Origin: Octopus vulgaris
Lineage: Eukaryota
DNA: 64,000 nucleotides
Direction: 5' to 3'
Assembly (NCBI GenBank): GCA_951406725.2
Contig: OX597827.1
Location: 59,830,001 to 59,894,000 of the forward strand
Below are positions 190 through 60,730 of this stretch, piece by piece. Each line of letters begins with the position of its first letter. The first letter of the stretch is position 1. The notes beneath the pieces were generated by a model. The model had not been told where the DNA came from. It worked only from the letters and a program-made list of their open reading frames with translations, and searched no databases. The position numbers and the translations under genes were made by a program.

Positions 190-865
190 TGTGTGTTGTG
201 TGTTGCACGCGTTTGCTAATCTACGCGCGATTACGAACGAGGACTCGTAACGTGCGCATTTCTGAAGAGCCTGCGCATCTTCAGGAATAACTCAGAGGGT
301 TTGTTCCCTAGGTGTAGCAAGAAGCATTTCGCAGAAAAAGGAATGAAGGAAGGAAAGGCAAGCGTGGAGAGACAGCGTGTATGTGCCCTATACTACTAGT
401 TCAGTAACACAGCTGCCTATCTGCTCTATCAGTTTACAATTGCTTTTCAAGATGTCTTAATAGCCAAATGAAAATTCACTCTGGAATATCACCGCAAACG
501 CCAATGTTTCATGTACTCGCTACTCATTATCAGGACATTTTGAATTTTAGTCAATCGTAACATTTCTTTTTTTTTTTTTTTCGAGTATGCATTTTGGATC
601 AATTTCTTTGCTAAAACGGGACTCGCGTATATATTTTTTTGTTTGTTTGTTAGTTCGTTTCCTAAATTTCTTATTTGTTTAGCTGTCTATGTTCACGTAC
701 ATACATACATACATACATACATACATACATACATACATACATACATACATACACACACACATACATACATACATACATACATACATACACACATATATAC
801 ATACATACATACATATATACACACATACATACATACATACATACATACATACATACATACATACA

Positions 866-6225: not shown

Positions 6226-6280
6226 TTTCACTGATGACTGTGATTTTATTTTGCCAGTACAGAAACCGGTTCACGTGAGA
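6226..6280 (+). ncRNA. candidate minimal hammerhead ribozyme
   Basis: tttca CTGATGA c tgt..17nt..aca GAAA CCGG TT cacgtgaga; palindromic helix III, in unique DNA abutting (TA)n; helix I imperfect. Confidence 0.5.
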
Positions 6281-11600: not shown

Positions 11601-11786
11601 TTCGCCATGTTGGACCACTGAACTCAACAGGTTTTTTTTCATTCCCTCTCTATTTATTCCCTCTTAATCCTTTCTGCTGAAGAGCGTAGGCTCGAAACGT
11701 GAAAGACTTTTCTATTTTTTCGAGCGTCGAACTTGCTTGTTTTTCCTACACCTATTTTCGTCTTTATTTTTCTATGAATTTGAGCT
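11601..11786 (+). mobile_element. compact hammerhead-like-motif element between microsatellites (family H1)
   Basis: ttt CTGCTGA a GAGC gtag GCTC GAAA CG TG aaag at 11671-11705; homologues at 15018, 15258, 31226 and 53553. Confidence 0.7.
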
Positions 11787-30060: not shown

Positions 30061-30869
30061 TAAATGAAGAAAAAGAAAATGGAGATAATGAAATTAAATT
30101 GATCATTACGCCTTACAGCTGTTTCAGTTATACACAGAGAAATTAATCAAATATTAAACTCATATTTCTGAGCATAATCTCTTCAGAGGGAAAAAAAATG
30201 TACCCTTAGATATTCTGTGTTTGTTTGTAGACTCATCACTCTGAAGAGATTATGATCAGAAACATGATTTTAATATTTAATAAATTTCTTTGTGTATAAT
30301 TGAAACAGCTGTAGGAGATAATGAGTGAAGGCGAGTGGCTTAGTGTTTAGGGGAATTCAGCTCACGATTATAAGGTCGTGAGCTCAATTCCCGGCGACAC
30401 GTTGTGTCCGTGAGCAATTCACTTTATTTCACCTTGCTCCAGCCCACTCAGCTGGCAAAAATGAGTAGTACCTGTATTTCAAGGAACCAGACTTGTCACA
30501 CTCTTTGTCACGCTGAATCTCCCCGAGAACTACGTTAGGGGTACACGTGTCTGTGGATTGCTCAGTCACTTGCACGTTAATTTCACGAGCAAGCTGTTCC
30601 GTTGATTGTATCAGCTGGGACACTCGTCGTCGTAACCGACGGAGTGCTCCTATACTATACTAGGGGATAATGATCAATTTGTTGCTGATAATAAACTCTT
30701 AAATTCAATATCTCCATTTTCTTCTTCATTTACATGAATATAAACAATGGTTTATTTACAAACCTATTATTTTATGGATATCAATTTCCCCCAAAATATT
30801 AGGCATTGAACCAGTATTTTCTTGGATGACACCAGCCATTCATGAGACGAACATAACCTCTAACTGAAT

Positions 30870-36813: not shown

Positions 36814-37230
36814 TGGTCCCGCTTATATTACAGAGCAGTTACTGTTTATACCTCGCTTAGAGATTTATTATTGTTATCGAACAGATTTTCGACGCCAGTG
36901 ACTGTGTTTACAGTGAAAATCTATATATTTCTAGCCTGTGGAGGAAGTCCCTCAACGAAGAACGGTGTTTGCCATGCGCTGACGAGAGGCAATACCTCGA
37001 AACCGGTCCGTGTGTAACATCCGTTTCTTCGGGGAGGCTGATCTCCCTTTACAGGCTAGCAAGGACACCGTGATGGTGTCGGCTCTCCTGGTGACGTCTA
37101 TAGTCGCCTGGGGCTAAATGCATCAGTAACACCCCCACCACTCCGCCCTGTCCCTAGCCACATTCAGATGGCTGGTCCCGCTTATATTACAGAGCAGTTA
37201 CTGTTTATACCTCGCTTAGAGATTTATTAT

Positions 37231-37231
<1 letters not shown>
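36814..37231 (+). mobile_element. retrozyme-like element: 359-bp unit with 59-bp terminal direct repeat
   Basis: 36814-36872 is identical to 37173-37231; central hammerhead; ends in (TA)n; no ORF. Confidence 0.85.
36973..37014 (+). ncRNA. type I hammerhead ribozyme, intact core
   Basis: catgcg CTGACGA GAGG caata CCTC GAAA CCGG TC cgtgtg; GUC cleavage predicted after 37008; helix I extends to about 36931/37059. Confidence 0.9.
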
Positions 37232-37267
<36 letters not shown>

Positions 37268-41604: not shown

Positions 41605-42857
41605 TTCGGTTGGCAACTAAGTTCCTGCCATCTTTTTAAATTTTGGAATTTTTTTTTTTCGACAATTCTATTTTTGTAACATTTTGGAATCTATTTTGTT
41701 GGGTTTTTTTCCAGTTAATTTTAGTTAATTTTTGTTTATTTTCGGATCATTAAGTTAAGAAAAACGAGCATTTTCGACACCTCCTTCTTTTTGCTTTTAA
41801 TCAAGGTTCTAAGGCCGCAAAAGCTGCTCGCGACATTTGTCTTGTATATGGAGAAGGTGCCATAGCTGAAAGAACCGCTCGTGATTGGTATGCCAAGTTC
41901 AAAAATGGAAATTTTGACCTCAAAGACGCACCTCGTTCTGGCCGTCCAGTTGAGTTCGATGAAGAGCGATTAAACAAACATTTGCGCGAAAATTCTCGAC
42001 AAACGACAAGAGAACTGGCAGAGAAAATGGAATGCTCTCACACTGCTATAGAGAAGCTTCTTCACTCGATGGGAAAGGTTCAGAAGTATGGAGCATGGGT
42101 CCGCATGCTTTAAGTGACAACGACAAAAATCAACGAGCCACAATCTCTGCTAGTATGGTTGATCGTCAGCGCTCAACTCATCGACACAAGCAACGATTTC
42201 TTTACCGAATCCTTACTGGCGACGAAAAATGGTGCCTGTACACCAATATGAAGCAGCGTAAGGAATGGCTTAGCTCCGGTAAACAAGCGACACCGCGCGT
42301 GAAACAAGATCTTCATCCGCGTAAAACGATGCTGTGCGTATGGTGGGACTGGGAAGGGATTATCCATTACGAATTGCTTGAACGGAACCAAACGGTCCAC
42401 GCGGAACTCTATGTTCAACAGATGGAACGACTCAGCACGGCTATTCAAGAGAAAAGACCTAATCGGCAGCATGGATCTGCTGCACGACAATGCCCGCCCT
42501 CAGATCACCAATATGATCAAGGAAGCCAATCAAACGTATGGCTGGTAAGTGCTGTCACACCCGCCGTACTCTCCTGATTTGGCACCAACAGATTTCCACC
42601 TTTTTCGATCTCTTTCAAATGCTATGCGCGGACTTTCGTTCAATATTGAAGCAGAATTGAGAGCTTGGTTGGATCAATTGTTCGAGTCGAAAGCGGGTGA
42701 TTTCTAACAATGAGGTATTGAAAATCTTGAACGTTGGAAAGAAGTTGTAAACAACAAGGGTGAATACATTAATGATTAATTAGTTGTTATTTTTTTTATT
42801 AAACTTTCTAAACTATTTTAATTTTAAAAAACGGCGGGAACTTAGTTGCCAACCCAA
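41605..42857 (+). mobile_element. full-length mariner (DD34D) with disrupted transposase
   Basis: TIRs TTCGGTTGGCAACTAAGTTCC / GGAACTTAGTTGCCAACCCAA; TA TSD; about 1.25 kb; motifs RSGRP, WV(P)HAL, TGDEKW, HDNARP, HPPYSPDLAPTDFHLF; frameshifts and stops. Confidence 0.97.
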
Positions 42858-59903: not shown

Positions 59904-60550
59904 AGAGGAATGACCACTAATAGTGGACAGCCTGTATGCTAGATATAGACGTCAAACTCGCCAATTATCACGAAGAATGTGTTCACAAGAAAAAATTCAG
60001 CAAAGACAAAAGTTTAAAAATAAGACAAATGAAAATATACGAAAATAAAAAACGATTACCTACGTACTTGTTAATATTTACGTATATGGATACGTAAACA
60101 TCTGCAAGATCATCAGCGTAGTGTGTCGTTTACGAAATACAATTTCTAGAACTAGATACAGGGCACTCGACCGAAATGAAGCATGTATAAAGCACCACAA
60201 ATTATATCTATGTGTATCTTTCAAATGCCTTCACTTTGGCGCGCTGAGATCGGAAATTACTCCGCAGTTAATAAACTGATTAGTTTCGTTTTTTTCTGTC
60301 AAATCTCTTTCGTTGCAGCTTGCAAATTTTTCCATGAGTAATAATCTAGAATAAGATCTGACAAACAAAAGTAAAACAAATTAACTAGTTGGATATTTAA
60401 CCAATTGACTGATAATAAAGAAAAGGAGTGGAATTGAACCAGTGTGTGTGCTAATTATATTGGCATAATGACTCTTCATAGACACAACAAAATTTGTTTC
60501 AACACACGAATTCACATAAAGAATCTTTCAAGCCGGACACAAAAACGAAA
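59898..60550 (-). mobile_element. TA-flanked element with decayed hammerhead
   Basis: Minus strand ctacg CTGATGA tcttg...caag TA cgtag (GAAA and helix III missing); CTATATCTAGC subterminal motif. Confidence 0.45.
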
Positions 60551-60730
60551 AAAAAAAAAATATATATATATATAGATATAGTTATACTTGGTGATACCCT
60601 TATTGTTCCAATTAAACCCACATACTATATAGTGCGTGTGTTAATTGGCAAAAGATGAATATCCAGAAGTATAACAATATGTTTCAATAAACGATTTCAC
60701 ATCAGGAATCTTTTAAAACAAATACATACA

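Follow-up and report, generated by a model that had tools for sequence, protein, structure and literature searches.

Insertion anatomy of a young non-LTR retrozyme family in Octopus vulgaris points to mobilisation by PLE machinery

Metazoan non-LTR retrozymes are described in PMC7229834 as non-coding tandem units of 150–450 bp with a GC content just below 50%. Each carries one type I hammerhead with a weak, palindromic helix III, and the elements have no LTR, PBS or PPT and are flanked by long target duplications. The same paper named PLEs as the likely carriers of retrozymes, with circles as the templates. In the canonical metazoan type I hammerhead, helix III has 1–2 bp and a small palindromic loop, so that the ribozyme cleaves poorly by itself but is functional in dimeric form (Cervera and de la Pena 2014, PMC4209133). 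PLE insertions contain partial tandems, an inverted 5'-truncated copy and a one-sided tail of 30–40 bp, and are targeted to microsatellites (Craig 2021, PMC8557442; Arkhipova 2013, PMC3846280). The tail, the inversion and the two start sites have been described as unique to PLEs (PMC11167929; PMC8557442; PMC3846280). The PLE protein, a predicted dimer, cuts and extends both strands (Frangieh 2024, PMC11167929). Its reverse transcriptase (RT) begins at two adjacent internal RNA sites, which define the tail, and hammerhead cleavage is unneeded (PMC11167929).

Two further systems are close. A preprint on vertebrate retrozymes as PLE derivatives (Li, Clavereau and Pollet, bioRxiv 10.64898/2026.07.22.740005) reached the conclusion that we reach here, that PLEs mobilise animal retrozymes; one of nine Xenopus retrozyme dimers was cleaved in that study. 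That study argued from co-occurrence and pLTR homology. We argue from the anatomy of insertions and found no homologous pLTR. Non-autonomous elements of Chlamys such as MRC1 (Craig 2021, PMC8557442) are likewise non-coding PLE passengers with multicopy head-to-tail insertions, but they match the 3' end of their autonomous partner and have no canonical hammerhead.

The repeat reported here agrees with the retrozymes of PMC7229834 in all the features listed above, and is closest to the mussel elements (350–390 bp) and to axolotl HHR_Amex1. It departs from them, as described there, in its twin fixed 3' ends, its head-to-head arms and a mobile subfamily with a cleavage-defective core. The strings "inverted" and "truncat" have 0 occurrences in the main text of PMC7229834, and a literature search outside subscription journals, passages of PMC11722881 included, yielded no tail, inversion or chimera evidence in retrozymes. 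With PLE insertions (PMC3846280, PMC8557442, PMC11167929) it shares the two start sites, the one-sided tail, the head-to-head 5'-truncated copy and the AT-rich or (TA)n target; the PLE duplications measure 8–13 bp, and the PLE hammerhead is unneeded for insertion in vitro. Unlike PLEs, it has no ORF, its tail measures 45 nt rather than 30–40, and its hammerhead is canonical rather than of the minimal PLE type. One insertion with arms from two different elements also sets it apart from the PLE insertions described in these sources. The family is real and belongs, without being exceptional, to a class described before; what is uncommon is the clarity of the evidence that its copies give on the movement of such elements.

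The window copy and its hammerhead

The 64-kb stretch of DNA that we analysed (the window) contains an exact 59-bp direct repeat (36814–36872 and 37173–37231) with a period of 359, extendable on neither side. When it was stretched to 36877/37236, 63 of 64 positions matched. The GC content was 49.6%, against 26.3% and 39.4% in the adjoining kilobases. Read as a circle, the unit had a longest ATG ORF of 30 aa on the plus strand and 24 aa on the minus strand, and so lacks the RT and GIY-YIG frame of an autonomous PLE. A tblastn search with both autonomous PLE proteins described below gave no match within the window. An earlier sequence-only reading of this DNA had reported the identical repeat with its period, the GC enrichment and the missing ORF, all of which were borne out. 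The features are collected in Table 1. No target duplication was visible at this single-arm copy.

Table 1. Features of the retrozyme copy in the window
Feature	Positions	Strand	Support
One 359-bp retrozyme unit of the youngest subfamily; position 36814 marks a 5' truncation rather than a genuine start	36814–37172	+	
Long hairpin prolonging helix I; 5' truncations of the copies concentrate at or just 3' of its base (unit 231–302)	36931–37059	+	Fold; 42/96 arms
Type I hammerhead with helices I, II and III of 6, 4 and 2 bp, the last palindromic; predicted cut after C37008	36973–37014	+	
Additional hairpins of the unit	37063–37172	+	
Beginning of the next unit, to the fixed "long" 3' end of the family (unit 58–64)	37173–37236	+	57/104 arms stop there
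Alternative "short" 3' end site (unit 13–19); read through and unused in this copy	37185–37191	+	39/104 arms stop there
Core (37 nt) of the PLE-type tail, a candidate element for recognition by the RT/endonuclease; present again at 36835–36871	37194–37230	+	About 95% identity to the sister family
(TA)n run at the 3' junction; usual target of the family	37235–37264		

The hammerhead has the proportions of the canonical metazoan type I ribozyme of PMC4209133 in helix I (36973–78 with 37009–14) and helix II (36986–89 with 36995–98), with the core at 36979–85 and GAAA at 36999–37002. Its elements lie where the sequence-only reading had placed them. The word "intact" used there holds in a restricted sense: helix III has no more than 2 bp, closing a loop of 2 nt in the palindrome ACCGGU, and the motif is therefore intact as a dimer-type hammerhead. 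In the monomer fold helix III did not form, and in a duplex fold the motif paired with itself at -9.7 kcal/mol. The ribozyme probably cuts only as a dimer. Since the window contains a single such motif, the RNA of this copy would need a partner RNA for cutting. The extension of helix I into a long hairpin, also proposed earlier, agreed with the fold, in which 36931–39 paired with 37051–59 (z = -4.82; 0 of 100 shuffles folded equally well). Rfam gave no hammerhead match at the gathering score, nor at E values up to 10. The core was intact in 76 of 99 units of the family, the window copy included, and was kept in a sister family with a different palindrome; this conservation indicates that the hammerhead is under selection for something.

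Other hammerhead-like motifs lie in the window at 6231–6272 (+), 11677–11718 (+), 248–284 (-), 30152–30186 (-) and 30241–30275 (+), the last two forming an inverted pair (30152–30275). Several adjoin (TA)n, and they are probably the ends of other PLE families. A fragment of a mariner-type transposase (PF01359, E 9.5e-26) occupies 41963–42577 (+).

The family and the anatomy of its insertions

The host assembly is 2.8 Gb long and rich in microsatellites. A 418-bp query found at least 125 matches with 40 of 2414 candidates scored, the best at 93–99% identity. Exact-pattern searches returned 97 hammerhead cores and 332 tail cores, the latter including the sister family, with 0 hits for the reversed controls. 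Similarity and pattern searches together yielded 59 distinct mapped loci, a set biased towards good or tail-bearing copies rather than a random sample; each locus was counted once, and loci of the sister family and alignments shorter than 44 nt were excluded. The repeat is therefore a young, dispersed non-LTR retrozyme family of a class already known: a non-coding 359-bp unit in arms of up to 5.7 units, a type I hammerhead with a conserved core, and loci on many contigs with duplications longer than 4 bp. The sequence-only reading had called it a retrozyme; the abundant paralogues, the tandem arrays, the size and the hammerhead type all support that call. Plant LTR retrozymes differ in having a type III hammerhead within LTRs and a 4-bp duplication, against type I and 11–13 bp here.

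Contigs from three runs guessed to be RNA, and from one unclassified run, covered the unit and included no telling joint; they are given no weight here. Among the sequence sets containing near-identical sequence, none with the retrozyme was recorded as RNA. The near-identical sequences came from runs under five organism labels, so the family is not limited to one sample. We also noted a copy of 86% identity that is peppered with TA letters and is probably an assembly artefact (L036:2487–2808). L013 and L223 appear to record the insertion of two elements, one retrozyme and one copy of the sister family, into a shared AT-rich position of one repeat; their target duplications are nearly identical.

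The 59 loci comprised 104 arms, of which 57 stopped at unit positions 58–64 (the long end) and 39 at 13–19 (the short end); the other eight were mostly short internal switch fragments. Ninety-six of 104 arm ends thus fell on 14 of the 359 positions, at two sites about 45 nt apart. Two arms lay head-to-head at 36 of the 59 loci, and all 36 paired a long with a short end (probability about 5e-7 by chance, with an expectation of two in three). The remaining loci comprised 19 with a lone long arm, three with a lone short arm and one with two long pieces in one direction. Most ends (82/96) ran into (TA)n. At 30 of the 36 inverted loci (TA)n was present on at least one side, where a duplication is unreadable; the other six, with unique flanks, all showed a duplication of 11–13 bp, which identifies each inverted pair as one insertion. 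Junctions between the arms had 0–6 nt of microhomology at 24 of 36 loci. More than half of the arms (52/96) exceeded one unit. The 5' starts of the 96 arms were concentrated at unit 231–302, in the hairpins 3' of the long stem (42 of 96 arms; 20% expected, p ~1e-7). A further cluster of 5' ends near unit position 1 was attributed to the 418-nt query and set aside.

A one-sided tail with two adjacent RT start sites, head-to-head inverted and 5'-truncated copies with partial tandems, and (TA)n targets make up the PLE "tail" signature, which is common to two autonomous PLE families of this genome. The window copy is a lone long-end arm of 1.18 units, and its 59-bp overlap is the distance between a random 5' stop and the fixed long end. 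The sequence-only reading had explained the overlap by reverse transcription running past the origin of a circular or tandem RNA. The tandem part of this proposal fits the arrays, but an overlap set by the origin does not; a fixed 3' site with random 5' truncation was found instead. The circularly permuted copies that it anticipated were not seen, the 3' ends being fixed in 96 of 104 arms. Likewise, 5' ends had been predicted at the cut site, and 0 of 96 genomic arms began at the 5' end of the cleavage product.

The sister family has a 352-bp unit and gave 398 exact matches to one 23-nt pattern. It forms the same two-end inverted copies, and its hammerhead has a different helix II and a longer palindrome. 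Identity to the retrozyme was 66% over 309 nt and about 95% in the last 37 nt of the tail, a comparison that is partly circular because the sister loci were found by a tail pattern. Both the tail and the dimer-type ribozyme look selected. One sister array of nine cores on C2 (L229, G000:C2:14086000–14089900) has U4 changed to C in every core, and its units differ at 11 columns, some of them shared.

Autonomous PLE families and a chimeric locus

At least two young autonomous PLE families, encoding RT with a C-terminal GIY-YIG domain, have the same two-end, (TA)n anatomy in this genome. Family A (L066–L076, e.g. L069:744–5960) is very abundant and young, with ends about 40 nt apart and two overlapping frames, one of 479 aa without a Pfam match and then one of 781 aa for RT/GIY-YIG. 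Its long 3' region contains repeats and a degenerate hammerhead-like motif (U for C3, A for G8) with a palindromic helix III. Family B (L119–L145) is also young, with copies of 99% identity and ends about 55 nt apart. Its RT and GIY-YIG frame was recognised in a 483-aa piece that fell under the Pfam cut-offs (E ~1e-3) and matched family A at E 2e-12; a PDB search with this protein gave nothing significant. No target duplication could be read for family B. Its coding region begins with an Asn/Ser-rich stretch, its 3' UTR has an internal (TA)n tract followed directly by a low-complexity stretch resembling the long end of the retrozyme, and its hammerhead-like motif has C at position 9. Short, diverged relatives (75–80%) of the family B 3' end, each followed by (TA)n, are present in the window at 60461–60530 and 60626–60724.

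We found no autonomous PLE carrying the retrozyme tail among 62 PLE loci (35 from the GIY-YIG search with extensions, 27 of family B). The strong tail matches in these loci were all retrozyme or sister copies lying there. The GIY-YIG search scored 150 of 6136 candidates, so the partner PLE may be unsampled. The retrozyme tail showed a partial resemblance, judged by eye, to that of family A.

One locus joins the two kinds of element. A two-unit retrozyme arm of the youngest subfamily, to which the window copy also belongs, ends at the short site and stands head-to-head with a 2.2-kb family B arm that ends at the long site. The junction has 4 nt of microhomology, and (TA)n lies on both outer sides, so a target duplication cannot confirm one insertion. 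The family B tail in this chimera, about 55 nt, differs in sequence from the retrozyme tail. Four copies exist, three on C28 and one on C2, and their common junction and flank indicate a single event; the C2 copy was rejected as a second event or a retrotransposed daughter, since its junction and 1.5 kb of its left flank are those of the other copies. Inspection by eye of the 5' flanks of 17 single-arm loci revealed no further chimeras. The chimera obeys the rule of one long and one short end, and suggests that a single insertion can combine cDNAs made from different RNAs. The two arms of L011 carry different haplotypes. That family B is the partner PLE seems to us plausible, a little short of an even call.

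Template, mechanism and rival explanations

The cut site was crossed uncut by 70 of 96 arms, by 20 of these twice or more. Together with the absence of arms starting there, this indicates that cleaved linear monomers are not the main template; uncleaved multimers and circles are both compatible with the arm starts. Among 151 units, those of one arm diverged by 1.2%, those in the two arms of a locus by 1.4% and those from different loci by 3.6%. Three L010 units were identical. Units within arrays also had variants in common: a period of 3 in L011, a double change shared by units 2 and 4 of L010, and in L024 a variant in register across both arms. Such sharing is not expected from one monomer circle unless DNA exchange followed.

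One subfamily (C3-A8) keeps C3 but has A in place of G8. Of 27 matches to its loop variant, 26 belong to it, and they lie at 19 loci. In a tree restricted to the 71 units that reach 330 nt, the subfamily came out as a single branch (98/97), and inverted as well as three-unit insertions are among its members. The only copy of this loop variant with G8 (G000:C26:32930813–32930838) may be an ancestor, a revertant or a product of A-to-I editing before reverse transcription. The C3-A8 hammerhead would be expected to be inactive. C3 and G8 pair in the hammerhead and natural changes covary to U3-A8 (PMC3088659), and G8C is inactive (PMC11167929). A literature search found no published G8A measurement. 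C3-A8 RNA may possibly be cut in trans by intact copies. Nevertheless, the spread of this subfamily to 19 loci and the lack of arms starting at the cleavage site imply that cleavage and circles are apparently dispensable for spreading. We regard the multimer route as the likelier of the two.

Mobilisation of the retrozyme by a PLE is, in our judgement, very probable, and the mechanism as a whole, a non-autonomous non-LTR retrozyme mobilised in trans by a PLE RT/GIY-YIG protein, is probable in the following form. Arrays of the unit would be transcribed, and the PLE protein may bind the conserved tail region of the RNA, as tail conservation suggests. Both strands of AT-rich DNA, mostly (TA)n, would be nicked 11–13 nt apart, judging from the target duplications and flanks. 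Reverse transcription would then begin within the RNA at two sites separated by about 45 nt, each serving one DNA strand; the ends are observed, and the mechanism is modelled on the anole PLE in vitro. Each cDNA would cover a variable stretch of the tandem RNA, often stalling at hairpins, and the two would be joined head-to-head or one retained alone as in the window, the outcomes seen as insertion anatomy. Multimeric RNA that has not been cleaved is most likely the template as a rule. A round of transposition would not require the hammerhead, which may nevertheless yield linear or circular RNAs of 359 nt by a side route.

The nearest alternative keeps the PLE as mobiliser and makes the template a monomeric 359-nt circle, which would be produced by hammerhead cleavage and ligation and reverse-transcribed as a rolling circle, in line with the model of Cervera and de la Pena and with the sequence-only reading. 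Arms of up to 5.7 units, the low divergence within arms and the identical L010 units suit it, as do the conserved core and the circles demonstrated for coral, mussel and axolotl retrozymes (PMC7229834), and it likewise predicts that no 5' ends lie at the cut site. A circle should give identical units with private later mutations, however, and L011, L010 and L024 show shared variants instead; the C3-A8 subfamily also speaks against it, though trans cutting or multimeric circles could serve that subfamily. We consider the circular template unlikely. Improbable to a greater degree is the proposal that the unit is a detached pseudo-LTR of an unsampled autonomous PLE, with copies that are stubs and arrays grown by unequal exchange. 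Its layout (hammerhead, 180–220 nt, two ends) does resemble the pLTRs of both autonomous families, pLTR homology is reported for Xenopus retrozymes (Li et al., bioRxiv 10.64898/2026.07.22.740005), and DNA-level duplication after insertion could produce the non-random variants inside arrays. But arms longer than one unit always continue into another unit and never into an ORF of the same orientation, multi-unit arms lie within single insertions bounded by target duplications (L019, L029), and the subfamilies succeed one another. An ancient pLTR origin of the retrozyme is possible.

Inversion and chimera can also be explained separately, by two insertions in one (TA)n tract joined through a later deletion and by fold-back self-priming on one template (Arkhipova et al. 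2013). Both families use (TA)n and were found adjacent tail-to-tail at L037, one such chimera was observed, and the arms of a locus fell in the same subfamily wherever the tree included both. On the other hand, the chimera has the head-to-head geometry, complementary ends and microhomology of the other junctions, its retrozyme arm has no PLE sequence beyond it, arm length and break point vary freely, and the L011 arms differ in haplotype. We therefore doubt this explanation, about as much as we doubt the circle. LINEs too give 5' truncation, inversions and microsatellite ends, and the chimeric locus is flanked by LINE-like DNA, so that mobilisation by a LINE (RTE/CR1-type) in the manner of a SINE, or spread as a satellite through DNA recombination, was also weighed. 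In LINE twin priming, unlike here, the arms do not both end in the 3' region of the element at two fixed sites. The retrozyme itself carries neither a poly(A) nor a repeat tail, the 36 of 36 long and short pairs largely refute a LINE, and dispersed loci with target duplications exclude recombination as the sole route. This last explanation is very improbable.

Returning to mobilisation by a PLE, a bolder and more tentative version, which we rate somewhat below the partnership with family B itself, is that the PLE dimer starts one cDNA per strand, from two RNAs if need be, and that the retrozyme RNA rides half of an autonomous PLE complex. The chimera would be a fossil of this process and family B the current carrier; with initiation inside the RNA and directed by the tail, uncleaved multimers would suffice, retrozymes with a dead ribozyme could spread, and the circle would not be an obligatory intermediate.

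The enzyme that moves retrozymes, and circular RNA as the transposition intermediate, are called open questions in PMC7229834 and in the preprint of Li et al. The octopus family offers natural reagents for tests, namely a putative recognition element of 37 nt, a candidate for the partner PLE that has ORFs, a subfamily whose core is broken and a chimera of two elements. The chimera distinguishes two-template priming from fold-back explanations of inversion in PLEs, and this young family as a whole gives insertion-level evidence for PLE machinery moving animal retrozymes.
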